Origin: Candidatus Omnitrophota bacterium
Lineage (GTDB): Bacteria; Omnitrophota; Gorgyraeia; Gygaellales; Profunditerraquicolaceae
Length of the DNA stretch: 64,000 bases
Assembly: GCA_041662125.1 (NCBI GenBank)
Contig: JBAZTA010000003.1
Coordinates: 135,992 to 199,991 of the forward strand
Direction: 5' to 3'
Of the stretch, positions 6,490 through 60,355 are shown in pieces. The notes below the pieces were generated by a model. The model saw only the letters and a program-made list of their open reading frames with translations. It searched no databases and was not told where the DNA came from. A program made the position numbers and the translations under genes. Position 1 is the stretch's first letter, and each line of letters opens with the position of its first letter.

Positions 6490-6499
6490 GTGACTTTTT

Positions 6500-34994: not shown

Positions 34995-35037
34995 AGTGTT
35001 GACCTCGCTTTGTACATGTTTTGATCTGACAGTTGGC

Positions 35038-37066: not shown

Positions 37067-37093
37067 TTAAAGATTTTAGCACAGTAATACCAT

Positions 37094-39025: not shown

Positions 39026-39100
39026 AGTATTTCCTTAGCCTTCCGACAGGGCATATGCTTTTATCTTTTGTTCAGGCTTATAGCTATTCTAAAACAATGA

Positions 39101-43948: not shown

Positions 43949-43971
43949 TGTATAATCAAATCGTTTTAAAA

Positions 43972-44886: not shown

Positions 44887-46660
44887 GGGTGCCTTTCACC
44901 GGGACAAATTCATTCCAACCGAAAAAAGCGGGATATTCAATCCACGTTCCTTCACAGCGGGCATAATAGATGCAGTTTTTGCAGTTTTCTGCTTTAGTTT
45001 TTGCTAAGCCAGGACGAAGCTTGTCAAAATCAATTATTTCGTCAGGAAACTCGTAGATTTTAGTAGACGGGATACAGCGTTCCGCGATAAACCTGTTATA
45101 AGAACCCAGCATGCAAGAGGGTATTGCTTCAGTCATTACCGTAATACCGGCGTTTATGCCGATGGTTAGGGCTTCTTTGATATAGGGGATCACTAAGCTC
45201 ATGCGCGGGACTATAGAATTGAAATTTTCAGCGGCAGAGCCGAGCGCATGGACGAAAGCTAACTGGAACTGTTTTACCCCCAGATATACCAAAAGCCGCG
45301 CGATTTCAGGAAGCTGCCGATAATTCGATTGAGTAATAACCGTGTTTGAATAAACCGGTACGTTAAGCTTGGTCAAATTTGTAATTGCTTTGACGGTTTG
45401 AGCAAAACTTCCCGGGGTAGATGTAAGATAATCATGCATCGCAGGAATATGCCCGTGAATGGCGACCCCAAATTCATTGGCGCCTGAATCGATTGTTTTA
45501 ACACAAAAATCTTTATACGCGAACATGCGGGCGTTCGTCTGGATCTGTATCCTGCGGTAACCCAATTTCTTTGCAAAGCTCACAAGCGTAAAAAAATCCT
45601 CACGGATCGTAGGCTCGCCTCCGGTGAAAACAACTCCGTTAGAAGTTGCCCGCGCTTCTCGCAGTATTTTCTGAACATCGTGCGTTGACTTATCCTGCAG
45701 TATTTCTTTTTTCTTGCCTTGAACGCAGAATTTACAATTGTTATTGCACGAATATCCGATTTTAATATCCGCCCGAACGATCTTGATCTTGAGGCTATCC
45801 ACAAAATTACACAATAACCGGTCAACAATGTAGGTATCGCTTATGATATCTTTGGAAAAGGCCTTTTTGATTATTATCGGCATTTGGCGCGCATCAAAGC
45901 GCAATGCGCTATTCGATATAGAATTGACGTGCCCAAGAAATAACTTATTTTTTTCGTTAGCCATGTTCTTAAAAAGGACGCAATTGCTTGCGTAGAAGTT
46001 TCCAAAGGGATCACAGGTCAGCCCGGTATTAAAAAGCGGGACATCTCCTTTTACCTCTGAATTCTTAAAATAGATTTCTGGTTTGTCGCATGCAAACAGA
46101 GAGATCTTTTTGAATTGGCGTTCTAAGTTTTTTATGTGGAGCCCCTTCCAGTCCACATAGTAATTCGGTAAAATGTTAAAACGCCTGAAACCTGACGCAT
46201 AGAGTTTTTTGAAATCAGAAAAAGCATGACAGGCGCCTTTTGGCGTGATATTAACGGTAATGGTTAAGAAAGGATACTTGGGAAGCGTAAGCGTGGCTTT
46301 GATTTTCTTGATATGGTAGGAATCAACCACGATTTCTATCTCGTGTTTCAAGCAAAATTTCACTATTGTTTCATCAATGAGAGTGCCATTGGTAGCCAGG
46401 ACAAAATTGATTCTTTTATGGAGCCGGCGCGCAATATGATCCGCGTAGATGACTATATCTTTGAGCAGCGAAACCTCAAGAAGCGGTTCTCCTCCAAAAA
46501 ACTTTATCGTCTTCTGTTCTCCGTGAGTCTGTAAAAAGAACAAAACCGCTTTCCGGGCGATCTCCTTTTTTATTGAAATATTTGTTTTCTCGATGCCGCA
46601 AAAAGAACAGCCTTCGTTGCAATTTTGAGTTAAAACAAGAGTCAGGAAAGTATTGTCCAC
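44873..46660 (-). CDS. double radical SAM fusion protein (type A N-domain plus type B C-domain)
   Basis: 595 aa. N-domain 'CNEGCSFC'/'FGGEPLL'. C-domain 'CNNNCKFC'/'TGGEPTI' with terminal 'CKNCIYYARCEG'. Confidence 0.8.
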   Translation of the reverse strand: MDNTFLTLVLTQNCNEGCSFCGIEKTNISIKKEIARKAVLFFLQTHGEQKTIKFFGGEPLLEVSLLKDIVIYADHIARRLHKRINFVLATNGTLIDETIVKFCLKHEIEIVVDSYHIKKIKATLTLPKYPFLTITVNITPKGACHAFSDFKKLYASGFRRFNILPNYYVDWKGLHIKNLERQFKKISLFACDKPEIYFKNSEVKGDVPLFNTGLTCDPFGNFYASNCVLFKNMANEKNKLFLGHVNSISNSALRFDARQMPIIIKKAFSKDIISDTYIVDRLLCNFVDSLKIKIVRADIKIGYSCNNNCKFCVQGKKKEILQDKSTHDVQKILREARATSNGVVFTGGEPTIREDFFTLVSFAKKLGYRRIQIQTNARMFAYKDFCVKTIDSGANEFGVAIHGHIPAMHDYLTSTPGSFAQTVKAITNLTKLNVPVYSNTVITQSNYRQLPEIARLLVYLGVKQFQLAFVHALGSAAENFNSIVPRMSLVIPYIKEALTIGINAGITVMTEAIPSCMLGSYNRFIAERCIPSTKIYEFPDEIIDFDKLRPGLAKTKAENCKNCIYYARCEGTWIEYPAFFGWNEFVPVKGTHAAK

Positions 46661-46743
46661 GTATGTATAACGGATTTATAAGGTTACGTACGTTTGGCAC
46701 CCGTGTAGCTAAATGCAGGGATTAACACAATGAATGTAAGCAG

Positions 46744-48237
46744 TTATTGTGAACCGGCTGGTAATGTGTAATTTGCCCATTTATAAAACAATTTCTTTAC
46801 CTTTGTATTCCTTAATTTATCAAACAAAAAGTCAAGTATCCCTTTATTGATTATGCAGCGGGGATTTGAACTTATATGAGAAAAGATATTGCCTTCATAC
46901 GACCAGTTAAATATAGGGCAAACTCCGCAGTAGGGTTTATACGCGCATAAATCACAGCTGGTGTTATCCAGGCAGGAAGCCATACTTAAGACTTTTACCG
47001 TAGAATGGTTCACGATTTCTTTGTATTTATTTTTTGATACATTCCCTATGCAGAATATTTCATCGCCGACCATTCGCCCTTCATCGCAGGTATAGACCTT
47101 TCCGTCATAGTTATAGAGCAGTTGGCCTATCCCGGCACCGCAGGGAGAACGCAACTCAAGAAAATTCGGGTCATAGTCGGTAATGATCTTGGCAAGGAAT
47201 ATCTTAGCGGTGTTCTCATGAAAATGGCTTTTGGGGTGTTTTAACGCGTAGGATATGACACGGTTAAGTGCCCGCGTATAGAATTTCAAGTATTCTTGCG
47301 GGGTATAGCCGATATCTTCCCACATGTTTTTCGCGATACCCAGGGGAGTCATCGGGCGCAAAAAAATAAATTCAAGGCCCCTTGTAATATATTCATTGAC
47401 GATTGCTTCAGGGCATTTCAAAGAATCTTTGCTTACGGTAAGAAGAGCCCCGGGCTTGAATTTATTATCAAGTTTTGATTTGTAAACTTTTTGGGCTTTT
47501 TTGAGCCAGCGAACCGCTTGACGATGATTATTCCCTTTGCTCCAGATACGGTTCTTATTATGGATATGTTCCGGGCCATCAAGAGAAGTACAAACAGTAA
47601 CTGAGTTTGCTACGAGAAATTTAAGTTTTGCCTCATCCATTAAAGAAAAGTTAGAAACAAGCCGTAGCTCAAGATTCTTCTTTTCCACCTTGTTCTTGGT
47701 TTTACTGTATTCAATAATGAATTTAACGGTTTGCCAATTAAGCAGCGGTTCGCCTCCCTGAAACTCAAGAGCAATTGTTTTCGAAGGAGACAAAAAGATC
47801 ATATCGACGATTTTTTTGGCGGTGGCGATGTCCAGGTCAAAGCCTTTTTCTGATTCTGCTCGGGACGAGCTTTGGCAATAAATACATTTTTGATTACAGC
47901 GCAGCGTGACAACGATGATATGCAGAGACGGGCCCTGCCATAAGAATAAATTCTTTTTCTGGTATTTTAACACAATATCCGCAGTATTGATCTTATCCCG
48001 GATCAATCCTTGTGTCTTTAATATTTCAAAGATCGGGCCATGCTGAGGCAACGTTCCTTCCAGAAAACTCGTAAAATTCTTTTCGGAGAGTATCACGTAT
48101 TCTCCGACATCATTGGTGAGCAGATAATCGGATGCGCCCTGTTTTTTAAATCTAAAAAATCCGACTTTCTCCCAATCAACTTTTTTTATTATAGATTGAT
48201 TCATGTTCGCTCCTGTATCCAATGCTCCTTTACTCAA
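46744..48237 (-). CDS. radical SAM/SPASM-domain enzyme (anSME/HxsB-like maturase) with an N-terminal extension of about 95 aa
   Basis: 497 aa. 'LRCNQKCIYC', 'QGGEPLL', and the C-terminal SPASM pattern 'CGAG...C' and 'CDLCAYKPYCGVC' are present. Confidence 0.75.
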   Translation of the reverse strand: MSKGALDTGANMNQSIIKKVDWEKVGFFRFKKQGASDYLLTNDVGEYVILSEKNFTSFLEGTLPQHGPIFEILKTQGLIRDKINTADIVLKYQKKNLFLWQGPSLHIIVVTLRCNQKCIYCQSSSRAESEKGFDLDIATAKKIVDMIFLSPSKTIALEFQGGEPLLNWQTVKFIIEYSKTKNKVEKKNLELRLVSNFSLMDEAKLKFLVANSVTVCTSLDGPEHIHNKNRIWSKGNNHRQAVRWLKKAQKVYKSKLDNKFKPGALLTVSKDSLKCPEAIVNEYITRGLEFIFLRPMTPLGIAKNMWEDIGYTPQEYLKFYTRALNRVISYALKHPKSHFHENTAKIFLAKIITDYDPNFLELRSPCGAGIGQLLYNYDGKVYTCDEGRMVGDEIFCIGNVSKNKYKEIVNHSTVKVLSMASCLDNTSCDLCAYKPYCGVCPIFNWSYEGNIFSHISSNPRCIINKGILDFLFDKLRNTKVKKLFYKWANYTLPAGSQ

Positions 48238-48341: not shown

Positions 48342-49604
48342 TTATTGCGCGGTCGTTATGTTGTTGTTAATTGACGTTATTTTTAAGAAAACAAGTTTAT
48401 TCTTCAAGTTATCATTTGACCGCGTCGTTATCTTAATGTAGTTATCGCTATAACCTTCCCAGGAGAAGGATGTATCACTAGTTTTCGATTCTATAAGTAC
48501 GGGGACTTGTTTATTGAGGAATCGCCTACGAAACGCTAAAGACATTTGGCTCTCTATTTTTTTGAGTGCCGCAACACGGGCATGAATAGTACGTATATGA
48601 ATTTCCGGTTTAAAATGGAATGCTTTGGTGTGTTCTCGGGGGCTATACGGAAATATATGCACCTTCAGAGGCTTTATCGCGCGCACGAGCTTTATCGTAT
48701 TATCAAAATGAGCTTGGGTTTCACCGGGGAACCCGACTAATACATCGGTAGTGATCGCGATCCCGGGAACAACCCTCTTTATCTCTTTTACCAGGTCAAT
48801 ATACTGTTTTCGATTATATTTTCGGTTCATTTTCATGAGGATTTCGTCATCCCCGCTTTGCATCGGGATATGCAAATGCCGGCACAATTTTCCAGACGAT
48901 GAAAGTTTATGTATTAATTCTGGCGTGACGTCGGATGCTTCAAGAGAACTCAGCCGTATACGTAACAGTCCTTTTATTGTTTCAAGTTCTTCGATGATTC
49001 CTACGAGGTTTTGCCGGCCAGACAAGTCTTTACCATATGCTCCCAGGCAGATACCGGTAAGGACAATTTCTTTAAAACCATGAGCAACTAAGCTTTGAGC
49101 TTCAGCGTAAATGTCGCCTTTTGCCTTACTTTTTGATTTTCCCCTGACCAGGGGTACTTTACAGTATGAACAACCATTGTTACACCCATCCTGGATCTTT
49201 AGAAAAGCCCTGGTATGGCCTTTAAAAGAGGTAATTGCTTCTTTTTGTGCTAATCCTGGTTTCTTTTTCCCCGGCAAATATTTTTGAATATTGGCCTTAT
49301 CTTGGTTACGCACAACCAGTATTGACCGGGATATATCCTTGATCTTATTCTTATCTAACTGCGCTAAACATCCGGTTACGATTATTTTTGTTTGAGGGTC
49401 CTCTTTTTTTAACCGCGTGATCAATTTGAAAGCTTCTGAGTCGGCTTTATGGGTAACCGTGCAGGTATTGATCAAACAAATATGAGCACGTTTTAAATGG
49501 CCGACTTCTCTATAACCATTAAGCGTAAGTTTTTCTCTCATATCCTGGGTGTCGTATTGGTTAGCTTTACATCCAAATGAGTAAAATCGTACGGTTTTTT
49601 CCAT
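48342..49604 (-). CDS. MiaB/RimO/MtaB-family radical SAM methylthiotransferase (start trimmed to internal Met)
   Basis: The probable start is 'MEKTVRFYSFGCKANQYD' (ATG 49602-49604). The MTTase N-domain Cys are FGC, NTC and TGC. Radical-SAM 'CNNGCSYC' and a C-terminal TRAM-like region are present. The 37 aa upstream in the ORF-track frame have no counterpart in the family. Confidence 0.75.
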   Translation of the reverse strand: MEKTVRFYSFGCKANQYDTQDMREKLTLNGYREVGHLKRAHICLINTCTVTHKADSEAFKLITRLKKEDPQTKIIVTGCLAQLDKNKIKDISRSILVVRNQDKANIQKYLPGKKKPGLAQKEAITSFKGHTRAFLKIQDGCNNGCSYCKVPLVRGKSKSKAKGDIYAEAQSLVAHGFKEIVLTGICLGAYGKDLSGRQNLVGIIEELETIKGLLRIRLSSLEASDVTPELIHKLSSSGKLCRHLHIPMQSGDDEILMKMNRKYNRKQYIDLVKEIKRVVPGIAITTDVLVGFPGETQAHFDNTIKLVRAIKPLKVHIFPYSPREHTKAFHFKPEIHIRTIHARVAALKKIESQMSLAFRRRFLNKQVPVLIESKTSDTSFSWEGYSDNYIKITTRSNDNLKNKLVFLKITSINNNITTAQ

Positions 49605-49618
49605 GTGAGTAATATTTG

Positions 49619-50359
49619 TTAATCTGATCCGTAATAAAATCTGATAAAACCGGCTATAGCTATGGCTGCGGTATCCACACGCAGAACCAGATTCCCAAGC
49701 GAAACAGGGATACATCCCGCTTTTTTGGCCTGATTAGTTTCTTGTTCCGTAAAATCACCTTCAGGCCCTATCAGTACCAGAATTTGGCGTGGGTGTTTAA
49801 AATCTGAGAAAATTTCAATGGCTTTCTTCCGATTTCCTTCTAAGGTTGGGATCAATTTCAGGTCAAATTCACAAGAAGTATCTAAGAGTTCACCAAAAGA
49901 GGTTATAGCGCTAATTTCCGGAATTGTGCTGCGTTGGCTCTGTTGACAGGCATTCTGAGCTATTCTACGCCAGCGTTTTAGCCTGAGGGCCTCTTTCTGT
50001 TTGTTTATTTTTACAATGACCCTCTCTGATAAGAGCGGAATGATCCGGTCGACGCCTAACTGTGTTAATGTATTGATTATATCATCCATTCTTGCATTCT
50101 TAGGTATTGCACAGGCAATCGTAAGATGCGTATTTACCGCGGCACTGGCGTTTTTGACCGAATGTATCTTTAAGGTGATTTGATGTGGTAGAATTGTTTC
50201 CGTTTCACAGGTATACTCAAGCCCGGTATTATTACAAACAATAAGCATAGCATCCGTTTTTAACCGCAGGACGTCTTTGAGGTAATGGATCAATACTGGG
50301 TCAGTGATCCGTATGTAACCTGACGCAATATATTCTTCAGGGCAAAAAATTCTTTTCAT
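49619..50359 (-). CDS. rsmE: 16S rRNA (uracil1498-N3)-methyltransferase
   Basis: 246 aa with RsmE/DUF558 architecture: PUA-like N-domain and SPOUT C-domain 'LVLIGPEGDFT'. Confidence 0.75.
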   Translation of the reverse strand: MKRIFCPEEYIASGYIRITDPVLIHYLKDVLRLKTDAMLIVCNNTGLEYTCETETILPHQITLKIHSVKNASAAVNTHLTIACAIPKNARMDDIINTLTQLGVDRIIPLLSERVIVKINKQKEALRLKRWRRIAQNACQQSQRSTIPEISAITSFGELLDTSCEFDLKLIPTLEGNRKKAIEIFSDFKHPRQILVLIGPEGDFTEQETNQAKKAGCIPVSLGNLVLRVDTAAIAIAGFIRFYYGSD

Positions 50360-50391: not shown

Positions 50392-51045
50392 CTAAAAAGC
50401 ATTAACGATAAAGGTAATACCGATACCAATAATGATTAAACCGCACATAATACCTGTAATCCGGCCATACAACTCTGTTTTTCTCGCCAATACTTGATTA
50501 AAGAATCCTGCGCCGATCATTATAACAAGTAATACTGAAAAAAAAGTCCCTAGGCTAAAAGAAAAACAATAAACAACAGCCTGGATCCAGGATTGAGCTA
50601 ATAAGAGTATATATGAAAAAACGGCGATCAGGGACGCGCATGGTAAAAACCCCAAAATAACCCCCAGAAAAATTGCCTGTATTGAATCTGTTTGCAGCAT
50701 TGTATTATGTTTAAAAGTACAAAACAGGTTCGCTCGTTTTTTATCAAGAATGATCATTGTCCCCAAAAAAATAATCAGGAGTCCCCCCCCTAGTGAGAAA
50801 TATCGGGCAGTTGCTTGCGTGAACTTTTCAAAAATAGGCTTTCCTAAGAAAAAAAGAATGACTATAAAGATCAAATACACAACTATACGCCCCAAGGAGA
50901 AAAAAAGATAGATCAAAAAACTCGCGGCAGGTTTTCTTTGGCAGCCCGTTACATATGATACCAGTACCGGGCCGCAACTAACCAAACAAGGGCCTGACCC
51001 TAAACATACGCCCATGATAAATAAATATATAATATTTTTAGTCAT
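50392..51045 (-). CDS. polytopic membrane protein with Cys-containing TM motifs (CcdA/DsbD-like?), start trimmed
   Basis: A start at 'MTKNIIYLF' (ATG 51043-51045) avoids the 100-nt overlap with the upstream gene. 'GSGPCLVSCGP' and 'LPCASL' lie in hydrophobic helices. Family assignment is uncertain. Confidence 0.35.
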   Translation of the reverse strand: MTKNIIYLFIMGVCLGSGPCLVSCGPVLVSYVTGCQRKPAASFLIYLFFSLGRIVVYLIFIVILFFLGKPIFEKFTQATARYFSLGGGLLIIFLGTMIILDKKRANLFCTFKHNTMLQTDSIQAIFLGVILGFLPCASLIAVFSYILLLAQSWIQAVVYCFSFSLGTFFSVLLVIMIGAGFFNQVLARKTELYGRITGIMCGLIIIGIGITFIVNAF

Positions 51046-51053
51046 CGTTTGGC

Positions 51054-52583
51054 CTATAAATCCTTTTCCGAAAAAACTTCCGCTGTGAACACATACAATT
51101 CTGTCGCACTTTCTTTCCATGCACCAGAAGGCAATCCAGCTTTTTGAGCGCATAAGTTCGATAAAAACTCTTCTTTAGACCAACCAGTCTCATTGGCAAC
51201 TTGTGGAAGAAAAACCCCTTGGCGCAAGCCGCGTTTTACTAAGACTCCCTGCCCCGGTATCTTGATTGCATCAGCAGAGGATACTTTTACCAAAGGCGAA
51301 AGCACGGAAATTTCGATCTCAATGTCGTTTAATTCCTGAGAAGTCACCCTTTGAAAACGGGGGTCTCCTGTCGCTGCTTCAATAGCCATATCCCGTATGG
51401 TCAGATATAATGCTTGCGTGCCTATAATGTTTCCGATACATCCGCGCAGTTGGCCGTGTTTATGGAGACTGACAAAAGCGCCGCATTTCTCCATGAAAAC
51501 TTGATCTGTTTCGTTTATTTTCTCTCGAGTGCCGCTTTTTAAAAAAGAGGCAATTGCTGCCCTGGCTATTGTAAGGGCTTTTGCTCGCTGTTCTTTATTT
51601 AACATAGTATGGCCTCCATCCTCTCCTTTTGAACCAACAGTTTCTGGATTCTGTTTATCAGCTGAATACGCTTGGCCTATAACACAACTGGCATAACCTA
51701 CCGTCCAAATTCCCGGGGTTTTCTTGCCGGTAATTTCTGCGGAATTTGTGTATTTTAAGACAGAAACGTTGTGATAGCCTAAGGCTTTTGCAACCAAAAG
51801 TGTTGTAATTACCGGATACCCGCCGCATAATTGCAGGGAACCATTGGTAAGCCCGGTAAAGAGCCCTTCGGTATCCATAGAGCAAATATACGTTAACGTG
51901 CGTTTGTCAACAAGCGGGGTTTCTTGGTAGTTATAACCATGATACATGTCAGTCGATGCGATTATCAAAACATCGGTGCGTCCGGCGATTGCTACTCTTA
52001 GCGCTTCAGCAAGCGAGTTACACGTTTCTAAATCAACCTGACCCATAATAAGAGGAACGATTTTGAAATTCGATAAAACTTTCTGCAGAAACGGCAGTTG
52101 GACCTCGATTGAATGCTCTTTGAGGAAGGCATTTGGCTCAAAACGTATTAATGGCGATCTCGAGAGCAGTTTTTTACTAAAATCAGTATCGACAAAAAGC
52201 TCACCCAACGGAGTTTCAAATGATCCTTGAGGATAAAGAGAAACACCTTTAAATCCATAGTAATGGCTGGAGCCGATAATAATAACTGTTTTATACCCCT
52301 TATTTTTTATCAACGAATACCCATAGGCTGCTACTTTCCCAGAAAATTCATATCCTGCGTGGGGAGACAGTAAAGCAAAGATTGTACCGCTTTGCGGCTC
52401 GGGGTGAGCAAGAGATAAATACGTGTCAAGTACTGCTGAAAGTTCTTGGGGATTTTTGGGGTAAAATGACCCTGCCACAGATGATTTCTTAGTTCCCTCA
52501 GCAAAGCTAAGGCAAAAAAACGTATTCATACATATATGCAATAAAAGTATCGACAAGAAACGTTTTTGATTAAGGATTTTCAT
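51054..52583 (-). CDS. MEMO1-family protein fused to AMMECR1 domain (AmmeMemoRadiSam system proteins B plus A in one polypeptide), with N-terminal hydrophobic anchor
   Basis: 509 aa. N-terminus 'FLSILLLHICMNTFFCLSFA' is a signal/anchor. The Memo core shows 'AGSFYP', 'SPHAGYEFSG' and 'GSSHY'. The C-terminal 170 aa show the AMMECR1 motifs 'CGAFVSLHKHGQLRGCIG'. Confidence 0.8.
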   Translation of the reverse strand: MKILNQKRFLSILLLHICMNTFFCLSFAEGTKKSSVAGSFYPKNPQELSAVLDTYLSLAHPEPQSGTIFALLSPHAGYEFSGKVAAYGYSLIKNKGYKTVIIIGSSHYYGFKGVSLYPQGSFETPLGELFVDTDFSKKLLSRSPLIRFEPNAFLKEHSIEVQLPFLQKVLSNFKIVPLIMGQVDLETCNSLAEALRVAIAGRTDVLIIASTDMYHGYNYQETPLVDKRTLTYICSMDTEGLFTGLTNGSLQLCGGYPVITTLLVAKALGYHNVSVLKYTNSAEITGKKTPGIWTVGYASCVIGQAYSADKQNPETVGSKGEDGGHTMLNKEQRAKALTIARAAIASFLKSGTREKINETDQVFMEKCGAFVSLHKHGQLRGCIGNIIGTQALYLTIRDMAIEAATGDPRFQRVTSQELNDIEIEISVLSPLVKVSSADAIKIPGQGVLVKRGLRQGVFLPQVANETGWSKEEFLSNLCAQKAGLPSGAWKESATELYVFTAEVFSEKDL

Positions 52584-53685
52584 TCCAAACTCCTTCGATC
52601 TTTTCCGCGCAAAAGGCGCATGCTTGGTTCTTTAAGTTTTTCTCTACTATAAAATATCCGTTACGTTTAATGACGATCTTATGGCAGCGGGGACAATACG
52701 TATGCTCCCCTTGGTTTCCCGGGAGGTTGCCGATATAAACATATTTTAATCCACGTGAAAGCGCGATTTGACGGGAAGCTTGCAGAGTTTCAGCCGGAGT
52801 CGGGCTTAGGGAAAGGAGCTTATACATCGGAAAAAAACGGGAGAAATGTAACGGTGTATCAATTCCAAGGTTTTCTTTAATCCAATCGCACATTTGAGCT
52901 ATTGAATTTTGAGTGTCGTTATATCCCGGGATCAAAAGAGCCGTGATCTCCAGATGCACCCCGAATTCTTTCAAGATTTTAAGGCTCTTGAGCACCGGCG
53001 CTAAACTGCCTTGCGTCATTTTGTGATAAAAGTCTTCAGTAAAACCCTTGATGTCAATATTTGCAGCGTCCAGATACGGCGCTAACCGCCGTAACGGCTC
53101 TTCGTTAATATAACCGCTTGAATGCATAACATTACGTATCCCTGCTTTCTTTGCCAGCTGAGCGGTTTCCAGCATATATTCATAAAAGATCGTCGGTTCA
53201 GTATAGGTGTAGGCGATAACAGGAGATTTTGACTCTTGAACCTTTTTTATTAAATCTTTGGGTTCAAGAAAAATGTACCGGAGAGTTTCAGAAGGTACTT
53301 GAGAGATCTCCCAATTCTGGCAAAACGCGCACTTTAAATTACATCCCGCAGCAGCAATAGAAAAAGCAGTTGTTCCAGGGAGAAAATGAAACAAAGGTTT
53401 TTTCTCAATCGGGTCTATGTGAATAGCAACCAGTTTAGCAAATGATTCGCTGTACAATTCACCATTACTATTTTGCCTAACACCGCAGAAACCTTTTTTC
53501 CCCAGGCTGATATAACATTCTCGCGGGCATAACCGGCATTGGACAGCTTTTCCGTTGAGTTTTTCATAGAAAAGGGCAATTTTTTGGAATGGTTGAGCAA
53601 TAGTGCAGTTAAATTGACGCGTAAAGATAATACATGCGCAGATAAAGAAAGCAACAGTGATACTTAACAGAAGTATTCTTTTCAT
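52570..53685 (-). CDS. AmmeMemoRadiSam system radical SAM enzyme (PflA-like activase family), with N-terminal hydrophobic anchor
   Basis: 371 aa. N-terminus 'ILLLSITVAFFICACIIF' is hydrophobic. Then 'CRLCPREC' and the rSAM cluster 'GCNLKCAFCQNW' follow. It overlaps the Memo-AMMECR1 gene. Confidence 0.8.
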   Translation of the reverse strand: MKRILLLSITVAFFICACIIFTRQFNCTIAQPFQKIALFYEKLNGKAVQCRLCPRECYISLGKKGFCGVRQNSNGELYSESFAKLVAIHIDPIEKKPLFHFLPGTTAFSIAAAGCNLKCAFCQNWEISQVPSETLRYIFLEPKDLIKKVQESKSPVIAYTYTEPTIFYEYMLETAQLAKKAGIRNVMHSSGYINEEPLRRLAPYLDAANIDIKGFTEDFYHKMTQGSLAPVLKSLKILKEFGVHLEITALLIPGYNDTQNSIAQMCDWIKENLGIDTPLHFSRFFPMYKLLSLSPTPAETLQASRQIALSRGLKYVYIGNLPGNQGEHTYCPRCHKIVIKRNGYFIVEKNLKNQACAFCAEKIEGVWNENP

Positions 53686-53744
53686 AAAACAGGAATAGCA
53701 GGATTAAGCTCAATGCAGATGAATTTGAAATGAACAATACTATG

Positions 53745-53817
53745 TGGAGCAGGGGAGGATCGAACTCCCGGCCTTCGCATTGCGAACGCGACGCTCTCCC
53801 AGCTGAGCTACTGCCCC
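53745..53817 (-). tRNA. tRNA-Ala (anticodon CGC)
   Basis: Manual fold: GGGGCAG/CTGCTCC acceptor with the Ala identity pair G3:U70, D-arm GCTCAGCTGGGAGAGC, anticodon loop TTCGCAA giving anticodon CGC, T-arm GGGAG-TTCGATC-CTCCC. No CCA. Confidence 0.85.
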
Positions 53818-53911: not shown

Positions 53912-54502
53912 TTAATTTACGGATACGGAAGGCATAAAAAGATTGGATCGCATAGTAATTTCAGGATTCTCGGAAGTACCACAAGGATACGAGACCTCAT
54001 CAGGATCAAAACAGGCAGTAATATCAACAACAGCGTAATTTTCACTCATAGGCATCCCTAGTTTAGTAAAAGTAAAAACAGTGACCCTATTACTTAAATC
54101 CTGCCAACTCGATGTGGCCGTAGAACCGGTAAAGGCAGGAGTATAACGGACGAGATTTCCCGTGAACCAGTAAGCAGCAAATCCATCATCACGTACACCG
54201 TTAAAGTTAGAATCAACATATATTTGCACTAAACTTGGAGAGCGATTAATAACAGTAGCATTACCATAAAATAGTTCATTGCCTATGATATTTAAGAATT
54301 GAGTTTGCATGTGCGCTAGAACAAACCCAATATCATTTTGCACCTTTACCGTTCGTTCAGAATGTTTAACCTCATAAATACTATACAGATGCATACTTCC
54401 TATGAGAAGTAAAATACTAGAAACTAATACTGAGGCGATCAGTAATTCAATAAGTGAAAATCCCTTGTTTCTCTTCGTTATATATATCCAATTATTATAC
54501 AT
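53912..54502 (-). CDS. type IV minor pilin (prepilin-type N-terminal cleavage/methylation domain)
   Basis: 196 aa. 'KRNKGFSLIELLIASVLV' is the class III signal peptide with Glu+5. Confidence 0.7.
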   Translation of the reverse strand: MYNNWIYITKRNKGFSLIELLIASVLVSSILLLIGSMHLYSIYEVKHSERTVKVQNDIGFVLAHMQTQFLNIIGNELFYGNATVINRSPSLVQIYVDSNFNGVRDDGFAAYWFTGNLVRYTPAFTGSTATSSWQDLSNRVTVFTFTKLGMPMSENYAVVDITACFDPDEVSYPCGTSENPEITMRSNLFMPSVSVN

Positions 54503-54863
54503 CAGTCCAATGTACTGTGATTTTTACACGGCGTAAAGGAAGGCCGGCAACAGTATTCATCATATACGTGGTAAGATAGGTGATTCGATTTATTGTCGTA
54601 TCAACTGTTGCAGGAGACGGGCAGTGCGTTGTTCCTCCACTATTCAAGCAGTTCGGTAAGTTAAAATCAGTGGCATCCTGGCGGACTTCCATTTGGAGCG
54701 GATCAAGAAACATACGGCCAAGATTTGCAGCTGCAAGCCTTGCGCGGCTGTGATATAAATATTTCCTGCTGGCAACAGAAATATTAGTAACACTCAGCAT
54801 GACCAGCGTTAAAAGAATTACACCAACTATTACTTCAAGTAAGGTAAATGCTTTTTTTCGCAT
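54495..54863 (-). CDS. type IV minor pilin (start trimmed to Met preceding the prepilin motif)
   Basis: 'MRKKAFTLLEVIVGVILLTL' is the prepilin N-terminus. The ORF-track start at 54926 adds 21 non-conserved residues. Confidence 0.6.
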   Translation of the reverse strand: MRKKAFTLLEVIVGVILLTLVMLSVTNISVASRKYLYHSRARLAAANLGRMFLDPLQMEVRQDATDFNLPNCLNSGGTTHCPSPATVDTTINRITYLTTYMMNTVAGLPLRRVKITVHWTDV

Positions 54864-54947
54864 AAATGAATTATTCACCATCAATACGCAAGGGCATCTT
54901 ATAAAAAAGATGCCCTTGCGTACCAAAACTTGGCCAAAAGATCTGGT

Positions 54948-55301
54948 TTACGGACAGACAGAACTTACAGGAGTATCTTCTGCTTGCCGTAATCTCCACT
55001 GGATCACGCCTCTGGTCGCTTGACCGCATCCGGTTGCCTCAGATGAATATGACCACACCGTATCAGTTGGTATTGTCAATTTTAGATTAGTGTTTAAATC
55101 AACACGACTTGGGCAATTAATAAAAGCTCCATATTCCATCCGGTATATTCTTTGTGCCGATTGAATAAGCATCAAATTTGCTTTTGCTTCTCCTTCAAGC
55201 ACCCGTTCTTGAGTGACTCGATACGCAGGTAAAGCAAATGCGACCAATATGCCAACAATAAGCACCACTACTACTAATTCAACTAAGGTAAAACTTCTCA
55301 T
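54948..55301 (-). CDS. type IV pilin-like protein
   Basis: 117 aa. 'MRSFTLVELVVVVLIVGIL' is the prepilin N-terminus. Confidence 0.7.
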   Translation of the reverse strand: MRSFTLVELVVVVLIVGILVAFALPAYRVTQERVLEGEAKANLMLIQSAQRIYRMEYGAFINCPSRVDLNTNLKLTIPTDTVWSYSSEATGCGQATRGVIQWRLRQAEDTPVSSVCP

Positions 55302-55337
55302 GTAAGAACCTTAATGTACTCCGGTAATTAAGGTACG

Positions 55338-55736
55338 TTACGGAGTAAAAGCATCAGTCCACACGCCAGCTTCAGTAAGAGATATTTGTTCGCCTGCATT
55401 ATTGCCATCTACTCTAACTGCAATAAGAGTAAAGCTATCTGTATCAGCATCAGTAATATCATAGGTCCAATCAGGATCGAGGTCAATGTCACCTATTTCC
55501 GAAAAATCACCTAATCCCGGAGAAGTATTTGCGGTTCCTTCAGCGATATTTATATATGTATCGTTATCAGCGCGATACATTTTCTCAGCTTGCGCAATTA
55601 TTCCCATCGCATGCTTAGCTTTTGCTGCTTTAGCGCGTTCTGTTGATTTTAGATACTGCGGAACAGCCAGTGTTGCCAAAACTCCAATGATTATGATTAC
55701 TATGATAAGTTCAATAAGTGTAAACCCTTTTTTCAT
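55338..55736 (-). CDS. pilA: type IV major pilin (PilA-like)
   Basis: 132 aa. 'MKKGFTLIELIIVIIIIGVLA' is the canonical prepilin leader with hydrophobic alpha1-N. It is first in the pilin gene run and sits behind a consensus promoter. Confidence 0.75.
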   Translation of the reverse strand: MKKGFTLIELIIVIIIIGVLATLAVPQYLKSTERAKAAKAKHAMGIIAQAEKMYRADNDTYINIAEGTANTSPGLGDFSEIGDIDLDPDWTYDITDADTDSFTLIAVRVDGNNAGEQISLTEAGVWTDAFTP

Positions 55737-55816
55737 CTTCTCCCCCTTTTTAATAAGATTGAGTATTTACTACGTTTTATTTCTTCTCTCACCACCTCCT
55801 TTTCTTATATATAATA

Positions 55817-55845
55817 ATTATAACCTATAATAAAAGTAATGTCAA
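55817..55845 (-). promoter_or_regulatory. consensus sigma-70 promoter upstream of pilA (TTGACA-N17-TATAAT on the minus strand)
   Basis: The minus strand reads ttgacattacttttattataggttataat. Perfect -35 and -10 hexamers with 17-nt spacing lie about 75 nt upstream of the pilA ATG. The RBS 'gggggag' precedes the start. Confidence 0.6.
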
Positions 55846-55861
55846 AGAATAATGTACTCAC

Positions 55862-57085
55862 TTAGTGTATCTGGCTGATCTGGAAAATAGGCATAAACAT
55901 GCCAATAATGATAAACCCGGCGCCTACCCCTATTACCATCAGTAATATCGGTTCAAACATTGCCGTGACGCGTGTTAAAAAAGTATCGACGTAATCTTGA
56001 TAAAAAACATTTAACTTTTTGAGCATGCTTGATAATTCGCCGACTTCTTCTCCTATCGCGATCATTTGAACTGTCATTGGATCAAAGAAGCCGCTTTTTT
56101 CAATCGGGACGCTTAAAGGCTTGCCTTCCCTGACCTCATCCTTTATCTTATGGATTATTTCTCCTAAGGTAATATTATTGACACTGTGTTCTGCGATCTC
56201 CAATGAAAACAGGATGGGTACCCCACTTTCAACTAAAGTCGACATTTCAGAGGTAAATCTTTCTACCACAAGGACTTTAAAAAATTCACCTACCTGGGGT
56301 AAATGGAATAAGAAATTTTCAAAAACTTTCCTGCCATTATGCGTGCTTAAATAAATCCGCAGGAGATAAACTCCAAAGATACCCGCAAAAAGAGTTACAA
56401 CAAAATAATCCTTGATCGCTGCGCTCACGGTGATCAAAATTTGAGTGATCAAGGGTAACTGAATATTAAAACCTTTAAATAAACTGGCAAACTGAGGTAT
56501 GATCTTCATACTCAGGAACATTAAAGCAGAAACACACGCTATGAGCAGAATGACAGGATAAACTAATGCCGATACAATCTTGCGTTTAAAAGCTTCATTG
56601 CGTTCCAAATACCCTGCTAAACGGGCTAATACCATAGCCAAACTTCCGGAGGCTTCTCCACTTTCAACCAGATTTACCCAAAGTTCTGAGAATATCGCGG
56701 AATGGCGCGCCATAGCTTCATGAAAGCTTAATCCAGCTTCCATGTCGTGCTGTAATGCTTTGATAACATTATAAAGCTTTACACTTGTCACCTGCTGTGA
56801 AATGATCTCAAGGCTGCGTAAAATGGTGACTCCGGCGCCTAATAATGTTGCTAACTGGCGGCAAAAAAGAACGAGGTCTTCGCTGGTATAAGAAAAGTGT
56901 TTTCTTCTTGAACTTGATTTGCTCGTTGTGTCAGCAGTAGCAAGGTTGCTATCGAGCGAGATATTGATAATGATCCATTCTTTTTCTTGCAGGCGGCTGA
57001 TAAGTTCGTCATGCGAACCAGCTTCTTCAATTCCTTCAACTTTTTTACCGGTTCTATCCCGGCAGGTATAAATATATTTAGGCAT
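55862..57085 (-). CDS. pilC: type IV pilus assembly platform protein PilC (GspF family)
   Basis: 407 aa. Two T2SSF repeats, each followed by a TM helix. Position next to pilB. Confidence 0.85.
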   Translation of the reverse strand: MPKYIYTCRDRTGKKVEGIEEAGSHDELISRLQEKEWIIINISLDSNLATADTTSKSSSRRKHFSYTSEDLVLFCRQLATLLGAGVTILRSLEIISQQVTSVKLYNVIKALQHDMEAGLSFHEAMARHSAIFSELWVNLVESGEASGSLAMVLARLAGYLERNEAFKRKIVSALVYPVILLIACVSALMFLSMKIIPQFASLFKGFNIQLPLITQILITVSAAIKDYFVVTLFAGIFGVYLLRIYLSTHNGRKVFENFLFHLPQVGEFFKVLVVERFTSEMSTLVESGVPILFSLEIAEHSVNNITLGEIIHKIKDEVREGKPLSVPIEKSGFFDPMTVQMIAIGEEVGELSSMLKKLNVFYQDYVDTFLTRVTAMFEPILLMVIGVGAGFIIIGMFMPIFQISQIH

Positions 57086-57104
57086 TTTTTTTCGCGGGAG
57101 TTTC

Positions 57105-58835
57105 TTAGGAGATGTATTCAGATCCTAAGGTGATCGCCAAAACTTCTTCTAATGAAGTAATCCCATCAAGCGCTTTCTTAATGGCTGAATCGTAAAGGGT
57201 CTGCATACCCGCTGATCTCGCCACTTCACGGATTGCCTGAAACGTAGCCTTTTGAGAGACTAACGCGCGGATCTTGTCTTCAACAACCATGACTTCTGAA
57301 ATAGAGAGCCTCCCCTTATATCCGATATGGTTGCATTTAGGGCAGCCTTTCGCGCGGTATAAAAGCTCAGCCTTAAATTGAGCCGCCCGTAACTGTTCGG
57401 CAGAGGGCTCATAGGCTTCTTTACATTCAGGGCATAATTTACGTATTAAACGTTGAGCCACAACAAGTAAAAGCGAAGGCGCAAGCATATATGGTTCTAT
57501 TCCAATATCGATCAACCTGCTGATAGCCGAAGGCGCGTCATTAGTATGTAATGTACTTAAGACTAAATGTCCGGTTAAAGCAGAGCGGATGCAAATTTCA
57601 GCAGTTTCCAGATCACGGACTTCTCCCACGAGTATAACATTCGGGTCCTGCCGCAAAAAACTACGCAAAGCGCTTGAGAAGGTAAGGCCGATTTCTGGCT
57701 TTACCTGGACCTGGTTTATGCCATCAAGTTTATATTCAACAGGGTCTTCTATCGTGACAATGTTCTTGGTGGGGTTTTTAATTTCGCTCAAAATAGCATA
57801 TAACGTCGTTGTTTTTCCGCTTCCGGTAGGGCCGGTCAAGAATACTAAACCGTAGGGGGAATTGATGGCAGAACGGATTTGTTCAAGTTGCCTTGTGTCA
57901 AAACCAAGCTGCCGCAAATCAAGCACAACATGGCTTCTGTCCAAGATACGCATAACTACCTTTTCCCCGTAAATTGTCGGGATGGTAGATATTCTCAAAT
58001 CAATAGGCCGATCGCCAATACGGACTAAAAATGCTCCGTCTTGCGGCAGTCGTTTTTCAGCGATATCAAGCTTACTTAAAATCTTTACGCGCGAAATAAT
58101 CGGCATATGTAAATGTTTAGCCGGAGGGGGGATCTCATAGAGTTTTCCGTCAATACGGTAACGCAATGATATCCGGTCTTTAAAAGGCTCAATATGGATA
58201 TCTGAAGCGTGTTCGTCAATCGCCTGGCGTATGATCAAATCAACCAATTTGACAACGGGAGCTTCTTCTGCACGCGCAATAAGTTTATCTAAGCTTAACT
58301 CTTGCTCAGTGCCTTCGAGCTCAAGTGAAGCAGCGTCAGAAGAAGAGCGGGTATAACTTGCTTCCACCGCTTCTTTAAACATCGTTGATTTTCCATAAAA
58401 ATCTTCAACAGCTTTCATGATCTCAGATTTGATGGCTAAAACTGAATTAATCTCAAAACCGGTGAGTTTGCGAAGGCTATCAATCAAAATTAAATCGAGC
58501 GGGTCAGTCATTGCTACCGTTAATGACTTAAGGGTGCGGGATAAAGGTAAAACCACATTTTTCATCGCGAACTCTTGCGGGATAAGCCGTTCCAACCCCT
58601 GATCGGCAACAGGCTTTAATGTTTCTTTTCCCGCAGTGTAATAAGGCAAGCCCAGCTGCTTGCTTAAAACGGTGACGATTTGCTCTTCTCTAACGAGGCC
58701 TAATTTAATAATAACTTCGCCGAGCCTGCCGCCCTCGTTTCGCTGTATCGTGATAGCATGGTTTAATTGAGCCTCGGTCAGTAAACCTTCTTTAATTAAA
58801 AGTTCACCAAGCCGAAGATAGGTGTCTTTAGACAT
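57105..58835 (-). CDS. pilB: type IV pilus assembly ATPase PilB (GspE family)
   Basis: 576 aa. N-terminal GSPII_E_N domain, Walker A 'LTGPTGSGKTTTL', tetracysteine 'CPECK...CPKC'. Confidence 0.9.
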   Translation of the reverse strand: MSKDTYLRLGELLIKEGLLTEAQLNHAITIQRNEGGRLGEVIIKLGLVREEQIVTVLSKQLGLPYYTAGKETLKPVADQGLERLIPQEFAMKNVVLPLSRTLKSLTVAMTDPLDLILIDSLRKLTGFEINSVLAIKSEIMKAVEDFYGKSTMFKEAVEASYTRSSSDAASLELEGTEQELSLDKLIARAEEAPVVKLVDLIIRQAIDEHASDIHIEPFKDRISLRYRIDGKLYEIPPPAKHLHMPIISRVKILSKLDIAEKRLPQDGAFLVRIGDRPIDLRISTIPTIYGEKVVMRILDRSHVVLDLRQLGFDTRQLEQIRSAINSPYGLVFLTGPTGSGKTTTLYAILSEIKNPTKNIVTIEDPVEYKLDGINQVQVKPEIGLTFSSALRSFLRQDPNVILVGEVRDLETAEICIRSALTGHLVLSTLHTNDAPSAISRLIDIGIEPYMLAPSLLLVVAQRLIRKLCPECKEAYEPSAEQLRAAQFKAELLYRAKGCPKCNHIGYKGRLSISEVMVVEDKIRALVSQKATFQAIREVARSAGMQTLYDSAIKKALDGITSLEEVLAITLGSEYIS

Positions 58836-58837
58836 TA

Positions 58838-60355
58838 TTAATCTTTCTGCTCAAATCGATTTAAACTTGAATTTATGGAAGAAAAACGGTCAAAACCTAC
58901 AGATGCTGATTGTTCCCTGTCGGGTAAGACAACTTTTTTTGATTTGGCAAGCCTGAAACTTGAATCTTTTATAATATGGGGAGTAATAAATACCAGTAAT
59001 TCTCTTTCTCTGTTAATATCAGCATTTTTGTGCCTGAATAACGCGCCAATGATCGGCATATCACCGAAAATCGGAAGTTTAGTTTCACTTTGAGATAATT
59101 CCGTGCGGATCAAACCTCCCAGGATGATCGTTTCTCCATCTTTGATCCTGACGGTTGATTTTGTCGATCTGATTTCCGGATCTTTATATTGGGTTCCGTC
59201 AAACGTAGCACCAAGTTTTGCCTCGGAGACAGTGGGTACAAGAAACATCGTGATATCCCCGCTTTCAACATTGACCTGCGGAGTAACTTTTAATGATACA
59301 CCTGTTTCTTCTCGTTCAGCTGATTTTGTTGTAGTTGCTTCTCCCGATGAGCCCCCGACAACTGACGTTGCAAGGCCAATAGCCTCATTCGTGGTGATCT
59401 TTATTTCCGCGGTTTCATTATTGAGAGTTAGTATTTTTGGCCTCGCCAGTGATTTAGTGTCAGTCAGTACCCTTAAGAAATCAAGCGTAAGCCCCAGATT
59501 GGAGAACGTAACAACACCTTTATCTGTTACCCCTGTACCGTCACCTTGCTGTATAATACCATGTTCGCTTGGCGGGTTAGTATTAAACGCTCCAAAGGGA
59601 AATGTAGTATAGCGCGCGGCACTCATGACCGAAAGAGTAAATGAACCCGCAGACGACCAATTAAACCCTAATTTATCAACGGTATTTTTGCTCACATCAA
59701 GCATTTCCACCTCAAGCATGATTTGCGGTTGGGCAACATCAATTTCAGCGATCAATTTTTCAATGTTTCTCATGCGGCTGGGAATATCGGTTACGATAAC
59801 GCTATTTGTCCGTTTGTCTTCAACCACTGAGCCGTTTTCACTGAGCATTTTATCAATCACAGCTAAAAGGCCAATATCTTCCGATTTCGTAGATGTGGTG
59901 CTAGACGATGAAGTACTTTCCAGCGCATCTTTTTTTTCTTTTTCTATATTGGAGGAATCAACAGACGCATACTTAAGACAAAAAACTTTCGTAATAGTTT
60001 CTATCTGCGGTTTTCCCCAATCTTTTACGATAAAAATATTCGAATCCTGTTCTAATTCGTATGTTAAATTATTCGCTTTAAACAATTTATCCATAGCTGA
60101 TCTTATTTCCACTTTTTCTAAGAATACGGTAATTTTTCTGTCTTTAACTGATTCCGAAGCAATAAAATTTAATCCTGACTGGATAGATAAGATCTTCAGT
60201 ATATCATTAAGCCGTGCATCCTGAAAATCCATCGAAATAGTAAGCTCAGGGTCATTAAAAGGTAATTCTGGCGCAGCATATGTTATCCCAAGTGAGAGCA
60301 CTATTAAAAAAGATGACAGGGCAATACTGAATAGAGTATTACTTCGCATTTGCAT
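58838..60355 (-). CDS. pilQ: type IV pilus secretin PilQ
   Basis: 505 aa. Signal peptide, N-domains, and the C-terminal secretin core 'ETIILGGLI...LLVFITPHII' are present. Confidence 0.85.
   Translation of the reverse strand: MQMRSNTLFSIALSSFLIVLSLGITYAAPELPFNDPELTISMDFQDARLNDILKILSIQSGLNFIASESVKDRKITVFLEKVEIRSAMDKLFKANNLTYELEQDSNIFIVKDWGKPQIETITKVFCLKYASVDSSNIEKEKKDALESTSSSSTTSTKSEDIGLLAVIDKMLSENGSVVEDKRTNSVIVTDIPSRMRNIEKLIAEIDVAQPQIMLEVEMLDVSKNTVDKLGFNWSSAGSFTLSVMSAARYTTFPFGAFNTNPPSEHGIIQQGDGTGVTDKGVVTFSNLGLTLDFLRVLTDTKSLARPKILTLNNETAEIKITTNEAIGLATSVVGGSSGEATTTKSAEREETGVSLKVTPQVNVESGDITMFLVPTVSEAKLGATFDGTQYKDPEIRSTKSTVRIKDGETIILGGLIRTELSQSETKLPIFGDMPIIGALFRHKNADINRERELLVFITPHIIKDSSFRLAKSKKVVLPDREQSASVGFDRFSSINSSLNRFEQKD

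Follow-up and report, generated by a model that had tools for sequence, protein, structure and literature searches.

A putative export-targeted, four-component AmmeMemoRadiSam locus in Omnitrophota

Overall organization of the locus

The AmmeMemoRadiSam system brings together AMMECR1, Memo and a radical S-adenosylmethionine (rSAM) enzyme. Conservation of MEMO1 and AMMECR1 extends from archaea to humans, and both have links to human disease; their reactions are not known, and the rSAM neighbourhood in bacteria is the main functional clue. Here we describe such a system in a stretch of 64,000 nucleotides (nt) from contig JBAZTA010000003.1 of a Candidatus Omnitrophota bacterium; this whole stretch is called the window and supplies the numbering. 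Three tightly packed open reading frames (ORFs) in the ORF listing span 50392–53685 on the minus strand, on which all genes of the block lie, and encode the rSAM enzyme, a Memo–AMMECR1 fusion and a DsbD_2-family membrane protein. The trio itself is known; new here is a putatively export-targeted, DsbD_2-coupled form with an internal start. From the sequence features described below we lean towards reading the locus as an AmmeMemoRadiSam variant with four components and export targeting. Its features are as follows (aa, amino acids; TM, transmembrane helix).

52570–53685, minus: AmmeMemoRadiSam rSAM enzyme, 371 aa (TIGR04337 and PF04055)
53596–53685, minus: N-terminal export/anchor segment of the rSAM enzyme, residues 1–30 (MKR, 18 hydrophobic residues, then ...CTIA/QPF)
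53485–53538, minus: N-terminal four-Cys motif of the rSAM enzyme, residues 50–67
53320–53343, minus: CxxxCxxC motif of the rSAM enzyme (CNLKCAFC), residues 115–122
52609–52695, minus: C-terminal CxxC...CxxC of the rSAM enzyme, residues 331–359
51054–52583, minus: Memo–AMMECR1 fusion, 509 aa (PF01875 and PF01871, TIGR04336 and TIGR04335)
52500–52583, minus: predicted Sec signal peptide of the fusion, residues 1–28, cut SFA/EGTKK
51684–52484, minus: Memo (LigB/PCAD-like) domain, residues 34–300
51606–51674, minus: disordered inter-domain linker, residues 304–326, with an internal GGAGG at 51613–51617
51603–51605, minus: internal start codon Met327, candidate start of a signal-less 183-aa AMMECR1
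51072–51572, minus: AMMECR1 domain, residues 338–504
51432–51446, minus: RGCIG of AMMECR1, residues 380–384 (Cys382)
51354–51365, minus: DPRF of AMMECR1, residues 407–410
50392–51045, minus: DsbD_2-family six-TM protein, 217 aa (PF13386)
50968–50991, minus: PCxxxCGP in TM1 of the DsbD_2 protein
50638–50646, minus: LPC in TM4 of the DsbD_2 protein

The rSAM enzyme matches TIGR04337 with 371.8 bits (cutoff 220) over model positions 3–336 of 349 and PF04055 with 83 bits. It is 100% identical to an NCBI Candidatus Omnitrophota protein from a metagenome-assembled genome that carries the same family annotation. Its nearest characterized relatives by hidden Markov model (HMM) are PflA (TIGR02493, 67.8 bits against a cutoff of 231), NrdG and YjjW. 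The rSAM gene and the fusion gene overlap by 14 nt, between the start of the fusion and the stop of the rSAM, and the same arrangement is seen in related loci. In the fusion, the Memo half scores 208.5 bits against PF01875 (cutoff 27) and 252 bits against TIGR04336 (cutoff 26), and the AMMECR1 half 178.7 bits against PF01871 (cutoff 25) and 170.9 bits against TIGR04335 (cutoff 99). All three AmmeMemoRadiSam models are passed, and the first-pass annotation of the locus was right both in naming the system and in placing Memo at the N-terminus and AMMECR1 at the C-terminus of one 509-aa ORF.

Several sets of sequences were compared. P-numbers denote homologous proteins and L-numbers genome loci. 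The core clade comprises 13 Omnitrophota members, the window and 12 related loci (L001, L004, L007, L010–L017 and L034). A scan of species-representative genomes returned at least 599 relatives of the fused Memo–AMMECR1, the best 80 of which are loci L010–L089; a separate rSAM sample consists of 150 representative clusters.

The Memo–AMMECR1 fusion

The Memo motifs PHAGY (His75), EHSxE (His157), DMYHGY (Asp212 and His215) and LCGG (Cys253) are present, and all five named residues are invariant in 22 aligned fusion sequences, as are RGCIG and DPRF of the AMMECR1 half, which correspond to the RGChG and DxRa motifs as defined earlier (PMC2034487). The Memo domain matches the human MEMO1 structures 3bcz and 7kq8, and the AMMECR1 domain matches the structures of PH0010, MM0484 and ST0229. 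The AlphaFold2 (AF2) model of the fusion, with a mean predicted local distance difference test (pLDDT) score of 83, shows two well-folded domains.

All 120 best hits, at 55–73% identity, are fused proteins of about 500 aa with both domains, and in 77 of the 80 best genome loci the fusion is a single ORF; it is genuine and not the product of a frameshift. The best 80 loci come from Omnitrophota, Bacteroidales/Prevotella, Acidobacteriota, Desulfobacterota, Zixibacteria, WOR-3, KSB1, Ignavibacteria, Planctomycetota and others. The earlier description of the trio as normally three separate proteins, with the fusion as something unusual, is not supported. Fusions of AMMECR1 with a dioxygenase (Memo) and their rSAM neighbourhood were reported in 2007 by Balaji and Aravind (PMC2034487), some fused hits are annotated by JGI as 'protein B/protein A', and the form occurs in at least 599 species genomes. 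The Memo–AMMECR1 fusion itself is ordinary, already known and without novelty. Longer triple fusions of about 900–1150 aa are also found (P0325, P0336, P0344, P0357, P0359, P0369, P0371, P0372, P0377, P0382 and P0384); these 11 are signal-less and have the order rSAM–AMMECR1–Memo, the reverse of the Omnitrophota domain order.

N-terminal segments of the two enzymes

The informative feature of the locus is not the fusion but the N-terminal segments. The ATG at 53685 is the sole canonical start of the rSAM gene upstream of the conserved Cys motif and catalytic domain, and the ATG of the fusion at 52583 has a GGAG 6 nt upstream. The rSAM segment is conserved in 115 of 120 homologues, and practically every full-length homologue of the fusion retains its own; for each protein the conservation exceeds 95% of about 120 homologues. 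By sequence, both soluble enzymes start with a conserved, signal-like segment; the first-pass annotation had noted that both begin with a hydrophobic stretch.

The two segments differ in detail. In the fusion family (n = 115), the –1 position, taken as nine residues upstream of the conserved AG.FYP motif, is occupied by Ala in 83% and by a small residue in 98%; the –3 position is C, S, G or A in 81% and the –2 position is F, Y or L. The n-region has a net charge of +1.9 and is followed by an uncharged stretch of about 18 residues. This is the classical Sec (general secretory)/signal-peptidase-I pattern with a textbook AXA site, predicted in the window as SFA/EGTKK. In the AF2 model residues 2–26 form an isolated helix, the confidence dips at 26–28, and the confident Memo domain follows. 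In the triple fusion P0117 the Memo signal is deleted precisely at the predicted cleavage site. The rSAM segment is longer, with a median uncharged stretch of 23 residues. Its flanks carry +1.9 on the N-side versus +0.25 on the C-side; the N-side charge is the higher of the two in 77% of homologues and the lower in 5%, and this bias favors an N-in/C-out orientation. Only 16 of 110 rSAM homologues have RR, KR or RK pairs, and the window sequence, MKRILLL, has KR only. A twin-arginine translocation (Tat) signal was not found on the window rSAM: the sequence lacks S/T-R-R-x-F-L-K ahead of a moderately hydrophobic h-region, and PF10518 gives no match. The earlier proposal that the two proteins are membrane-tethered is too weak and possibly wrong in kind, given the cleavable Sec statistics of the fusion segment, the N-in/C-out bias of the rSAM segment, and rSAM orthologues that either have Tat motifs or form fusions with extracytosolic redox modules.

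The DsbD_2-family membrane protein

The first-pass annotation listed a polytopic membrane protein with Cys motifs after the fusion, which we identify as a PF13386 DsbD_2 protein (65.5 bits, cutoff 24.9) with a corrected start. The most likely start is the ATG at 51045 (217 aa) and not that at 51153 (253 aa), because the 253-aa version would run 100 nt into the fusion gene, and orthologues measure 214–220 aa. The residues C20, C24 and C136 are invariant or nearly so in 32 DsbD_2 sequences, and CxxxC in TM1 and PC.P in TM4 are common to the window protein family and the rSAM-fused DsbD_2 copies. Loop charges predict an N-out/C-out topology by the positive-inside rule. The window protein has no match to PF02683 at E ≤ 0.01, whereas many orthologues do match this family, and it finds no relative in the PDB by sequence. 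NCBI labels it 'sulfite exporter TauE/SafE family'; among NCBIfam models the ArsG arsenical permease comes closest, with a score far below its cutoff.

The order rSAM–fusion–DsbD_2 is found in 13 of 13 core-clade members. In the deeper lineages L019, L027 and L054 the order is DsbD_2–rSAM–fusion, with DsbD_2 immediately upstream; these deeper Omnitrophota copies were found by HMM and had been missed by single-sequence phmmer. In L093, a protein with DsbD_2 and Fer4_5 lies upstream of an FMN_bind–rSAM protein. Because DsbD_2 is adjacent in two gene orders, we regard it as the fourth component, and this adjacency together with the domain fusions described below ties DsbD_2 to this rSAM clade at the level of sequence.

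Signals and redox fusions in other lineages

Orthologues outside the core clade bear on the compartment in which the enzymes act. Signal classes were assigned by an automatic classifier, with L010, L016, L045 and L034 reassigned by eye, and neighbour scans in loci of other phyla covered ±7 kb. The triple fusions P0117 and P0246 (rSAM–Memo–AMMECR1) and P0251 (signal–Memo–AMMECR1–rSAM) contain all three TIGR0433x domains, with one N-terminal hydrophobic segment and no internal TM. Three independent triple-fusion architectures with a single signal suggest that the enzymes share one compartment. Among TIGR04337 rSAM enzymes outside Omnitrophota (334–395 bits) that lie beside signal- or lipobox-bearing fusions, Tat motifs stand at the start of the protein in 15 loci, which represent at least seven phylum-level groups. 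Thirteen of the 15 match [RK]R.F[LI][KT]; examples are SRRDFIK, DRRGFLK, KRRDFIK and NKREFLK. In the independent sample of 150 rSAM clusters about 27 are Tat-like and about 89 have no N-terminal extension. Many fusions outside Omnitrophota have lipobox-like signals (e.g. L021, L024, L025, L049 and L064).

TIGR04337 enzymes are also fused to redox modules (362–416 bits; among the closest representative clusters). These include DsbD_2–rSAM (P0244 and P0268), DsbD_2–FMN_bind–Fer4_5–rSAM (P0255), TM–FMN_bind–Fer4_5–rSAM (P0241 and P0242) and TM–FMN_bind–rSAM (P0254 and P0263), the last with no TM between FMN_bind and rSAM. In NapH-like proteins the N-terminal FMN_bind domain is extracytosolic; the clients of most such systems are unknown (PMC8238504). 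In P0241, P0242 and P0255 the TM right before the rSAM domain comes after a CX3CP loop. This loop is cytoplasmic in NosR/NapH-type proteins, and by analogy the rSAM domain of these three proteins would fall outside. Fusions of the rSAM to a β-propeller (P0256) and to a carbohydrate-binding-module-like domain (P0260) point to the outside too. An FMN_bind ORF abuts the rSAM gene in L035. The scans of ±7 kb around Tat-type loci in other phyla detected no neighbouring DsbD_2, FMN_bind or NapH-like genes, except a weak FMN_bind match in L065. Beside the DsbD_2–rSAM fusion P0244, L091 encodes (6370–8631) a 753-aa protein with a spermine/spermidine-synthase domain that overlaps the stop of the P0244 gene. 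Spermine/spermidine synthase uses a substrate derived from S-adenosylmethionine (SAM), and this protein could be relevant to the handling of SAM-related metabolites at the membrane.

Across the 80 loci L010–L089, an rSAM lies within 7 kb of 42 of 52 signal-bearing fusions versus 7 of 28 signal-less fusions (Fisher p = 2e-6). A signal on the fusion is not significantly associated with a signal on the rSAM (Fisher p = 0.40), in a test that is underpowered because signal-less fusions seldom have an adjacent rSAM.

A candidate internal start in the fusion gene

Met327 is invariant in the 22 aligned fusions. It sits where the disordered linker (pLDDT below 50 for residues 305–324) ends, just ahead of the first AMMECR1 helix, and corresponds to the natural N-terminus of free AMMECR1: residue 3 of 1zq7 aligns with residue 329, and the NF002000 match begins at residue 327. 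A start codon (ATG in 12, TTG in 1) lies 52–53 codons before RGCIG in each of the 13 core-clade members, with GGAG or GGAGG upstream. The duplex energy of the Shine–Dalgarno (SD) sequence is –9.3 kcal/mol in the window and –8.2 kcal/mol on average over the 12 ATG members (the window and 11 loci), while 117 internal Met codons used as a control have a mean of –2.3 kcal/mol and a 5th percentile of –6.6 kcal/mol. Linker residues vary across the 13 members while the SD and start codon are kept at the nucleotide level. Such conservation makes a second, signal-less AMMECR1 product likely, and on this nucleotide pattern the core clade probably also makes a cytoplasmic AMMECR1 from the same gene. The internal SD and start are absent in fused genes of deeper Omnitrophota and of other phyla.

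Genomic neighbourhood

Three annotated genes follow the system on the downstream side.

49619–50359, minus: rsmE, 16S rRNA m3U1498 methyltransferase (TIGR00046, 158 bits), 32 nt downstream of the DsbD_2 gene
48342–49604, minus: mtaB, tRNA ms2t6A methylthiotransferase (TIGR01579, 428.8 bits, cutoff 357)
46744–48237, minus: HxsB (TIGR03978, 476 bits)

The longest-ORF start of mtaB at 49715 would overlap the upstream gene by about 100 nt and is probably over-extended; 49604 is likelier, and orthologue length and model coverage indicate Met38 of the long ORF as the likely start. The block rSAM–fusion–DsbD_2–rsmE–mtaB is kept in 13 of 13 core-clade members, and both flanks change. A functional link of rsmE to this conserved block is uncertain. 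Promoter and terminator scans gave scores below the shuffled background.

HxsB belongs to an array of about eleven consecutive rSAM genes (33104–48237, minus), with one true HxsB and ten paralogues that have only sub-threshold HxsC, HxsC4, HxsB or PapB scores. Two-domain proteins of 595, 643 and 925 aa are among the paralogues, and the N-terminus of the 925-aa one is BchE/B12-like; no HxsC, HxsD or HxsA passing cutoff was found in the array. The first-pass annotation placed the system about 1 kb from the array with rsmE in between. This distance stands only if mtaB, itself an rSAM methylthiotransferase, is counted in the array; HxsB starts 2.15 kb away, with rsmE and mtaB intervening. An HxsB-like gene is near the block only in the window, L001, L004 and L012, and is absent nearby in nine of the 12 related loci. 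The supposed link of the fused, anchored form with an Hxs-like cluster is not borne out by this distribution, and the adjacency to the Hxs array is lineage-specific synteny.

Directly upstream of the rSAM gene is tRNA-Ala(CGC) (53744–53817, minus), and further upstream are pseudopilin-like genes, a platform protein of type II secretion system/type IV pilus kind, an ATPase and a secretin (53912–60355, minus), assigned by analogy with Pfam calls on the syntenic L001. The secretion genes, including the secretin, indicate that the organism is diderm and possesses a periplasm.

Proposed mechanism and alternative explanations

If the locus is export-targeted, the fusion would be exported by Sec and cleaved after Ala28, and the rSAM enzyme would take up an N-in/C-out position at the external side of the cytoplasmic membrane, with a segment that is cut off after Ala30 or else stays as a signal anchor. 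The three catalytic domains would act jointly on an envelope substrate, such as a lipid or isoprenoid, a glycan or a protein, and not on RNA. rSAM enzymes depend on SAM, a low-potential reductant and [4Fe-4S] clusters. Three Cys residues of the DsbD_2 protein are embedded in the membrane, and the protein could move reducing equivalents or thiophilic cargo across it; this transport may reduce the rSAM cluster or hold Cys ligands and catalytic thiols in the reduced state. NapH-like Fe–S/FMN_bind conduits fused to the rSAM appear to do the job of DsbD_2 in sister lineages. In core Omnitrophota the internal ribosome-binding site and start would yield a cytoplasmic AMMECR1 as well. Put more broadly, and only tentatively, an extracytoplasmic set of rSAM, Memo and AMMECR1 fed by DsbD_2 or a NapH-like conduit may be widespread, of Sec type in Omnitrophota and of Tat type in Bacteroidota, Desulfobacterota, Acidobacteriota and others, with dual AMMECR1 products in the core clade.

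Several observations weigh against this proposal. We know of no source of SAM or of Fe–S assembly outside the cytoplasm. In Omnitrophota the rSAM segment resembles a Sec signal or an anchor, not a Tat signal, and Sec would export the rSAM in an unfolded state. PF10518, applied to nine putative Tat N-termini of other phyla, gave only three matches, all sub-threshold (E 0.016–0.15), so the Tat calls there rest on motif matches. The conduit-fused rSAM enzymes are on short contigs and no Memo–AMMECR1 neighbour is visible there. Prevotella-type loci pair a signal- or lipobox-bearing fusion with a signal-less adjacent rSAM of about 290 aa, which means that co-localization of the rSAM and the fusion is not universal; in these loci (L051, L053, L060, L067, L069, L070, L072, L076 and L086) the rSAM lies directly downstream and is without the C-terminal Cys-rich tail. 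For the DsbD_2 protein, Foldseek with the AF2 model (pLDDT 71) retrieved nothing from the PDB at E ≤ 0.001, and CcdA was not retrieved. The highest-probability, non-significant matches are NqrE and RnfA, subunits that bind an intramembrane Fe–S center, a lead only for DsbD_2. Finally, rsmE and mtaB, whose products are cytoplasmic RNA-modification enzymes, run in the same direction as the rest of the block; this fits the older RNA-modification hypothesis (PMC2034487), perhaps via the internally initiated AMMECR1.

The biochemical needs of an rSAM enzyme would be met if both N-terminal segments were uncleaved anchors (N-out/C-in or monotopic) that keep the two enzymes at the cytoplasmic side of the membrane, within reach of SAM, flavodoxin or ferredoxin and Fe–S assembly, with a membrane lipid or isoprenoid as substrate and DsbD_2 as scaffold or substrate channel. 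The length of the rSAM segment, mostly without twin arginine, agrees with this arrangement, as do deeper Omnitrophota rSAM enzymes that are basic after the TM (e.g. L019, ...ICRRERSFR) and the tie of the system to isoprenoid modification reportedly drawn by Burroughs et al. in 2019. We nevertheless judge it unlikely: the charge bias of the rSAM segment (N>C in 77%, N<C in 5%) is of the opposite sense, the fusion segment has a canonical AXA site, orthologues bear Tat motifs and many fusions of other phyla have lipobox-type signals, and the FMN_bind–rSAM fusions and NapH-like topologies put the rSAM outside. A rather less probable arrangement is that the PflA-like rSAM modifies the Memo–AMMECR1 protein itself, for example by a radical or cross-link at a conserved Cys, with the exported, modified fusion as the effector and the rSAM segment coupling modification to export. 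By similarity TIGR04337 comes closest to the glycyl-radical activases PflA, NrdG and YjjW, the three domains are repeatedly fused, and the Prevotella-type pairing of a signal-bearing fusion with a signal-less downstream rSAM resembles HxsB/C acting on HxsA (PMC13128918). Such a maturase would leave unexplained the Tat- or Sec-like signals of the rSAM itself and its FMN_bind and DsbD_2 fusions. Nor, to our knowledge, is there a glycyl-radical-type motif in Memo or AMMECR1.

Two further explanations concern the surroundings and the data. The block could be an accessory module that matures or exports products of the neighbouring Hxs-like array, in keeping with their proximity in the window, L001, L004 and L012 and with the periplasmic effector of the HXS system, an anti-phage system whose rSAM enzymes are signal-less and act in the cytoplasm (PMC13128918). 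This is very improbable, in that the five-gene block occurs without Hxs genes in L007, L010, L011, L013–L017 and L034, AmmeMemoRadiSam is found in hundreds of genomes without Hxs, and two housekeeping genes stand between the block and the array. An annotation or assembly artefact would require a frameshift to have made the fusion and over-extended starts to have made the hydrophobic N-termini. One gene caller does begin the identical protein at Met19 (P0001, 491 aa), and the longest-ORF start of the DsbD_2 gene is truly over-extended. Conservation effectively refutes this explanation and leaves it a negligible probability: the fusion recurs in 120/120 best hits and 77/80 genome loci, the signal segments keep their sequence pattern across 55–73% identity, an SD precedes the ATG at 52583, and the rSAM gene has no alternative start.

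The system is said to have been assigned to nucleotide or isoprenoid modification by Burroughs et al. in 2019. The rSAM neighbourhood was read in 2007 as RNA base modification (PMC2034487). The literature searched, in which Burroughs et al. 2019 was not covered, holds no description of an exported AmmeMemoRadiSam form. A large subset of these systems, drawn from many phyla, has Sec, lipoprotein or Tat signals and is coupled or fused to transmembrane electron-transfer modules, which makes the cell envelope the likelier place of the substrate. If the export-targeted reading is true, the chemistry of the trio would target an envelope molecule rather than RNA, SAM or an equivalent would be needed in the periplasm, and the working assumption of strictly cytoplasmic rSAM enzymes would be challenged. 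It would also give a client to some of the NapH-like/FMN_bind systems whose reaction is unknown (PMC8238504).

Comparison with known systems

PflA-type activases differ from the window rSAM, which has extra N- and C-terminal Cys motifs and no glycyl-radical enzyme partner. HxsB/HxsC acting on HxsA and the anaerobic sulfatase maturase likewise tie rSAM chemistry to an extracytoplasmic product. However, such maturases are signal-less and cytoplasmic (PMC13128918), whereas the window rSAM itself carries a targeting segment. The DsbD_2 protein shares with CcdA/DsbD (PF02683) six TMs, Pro-Cys motifs in TM1 and TM4 and a predicted N-out/C-out topology, but it belongs to PF13386, has an extra Cys in TM1 (CxxxC) and has no thioredoxin-like partner in the locus.

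The NapH/NosR/PceC-type modules, with FMN_bind and Fer4_5 (Meheust et al. 2021, PMC8238504), have the same architecture that is fused to the sister TIGR04337 enzymes P0241, P0242 and P0255. The logic is alike, a membrane conduit that feeds an exported redox enzyme, such as the Tat-exported N2O reductase or a reductive dehalogenase. The window block differs in having no FMN_bind or Fer4_5 gene, only DsbD_2, and an rSAM is not among the described clients. The canonical AmmeMemoRadiSam form has no N-terminal extension, is presumed cytoplasmic and is predicted to act in RNA-base modification. The window system shares with it the CxxxCxxC motif, the His/Asp/Cys site of Memo, RGCxG and DxRF of AMMECR1, and adjacent, overlapping genes; it differs in its export-type segments, the fourth gene for DsbD_2, and the internal SD and start codon.

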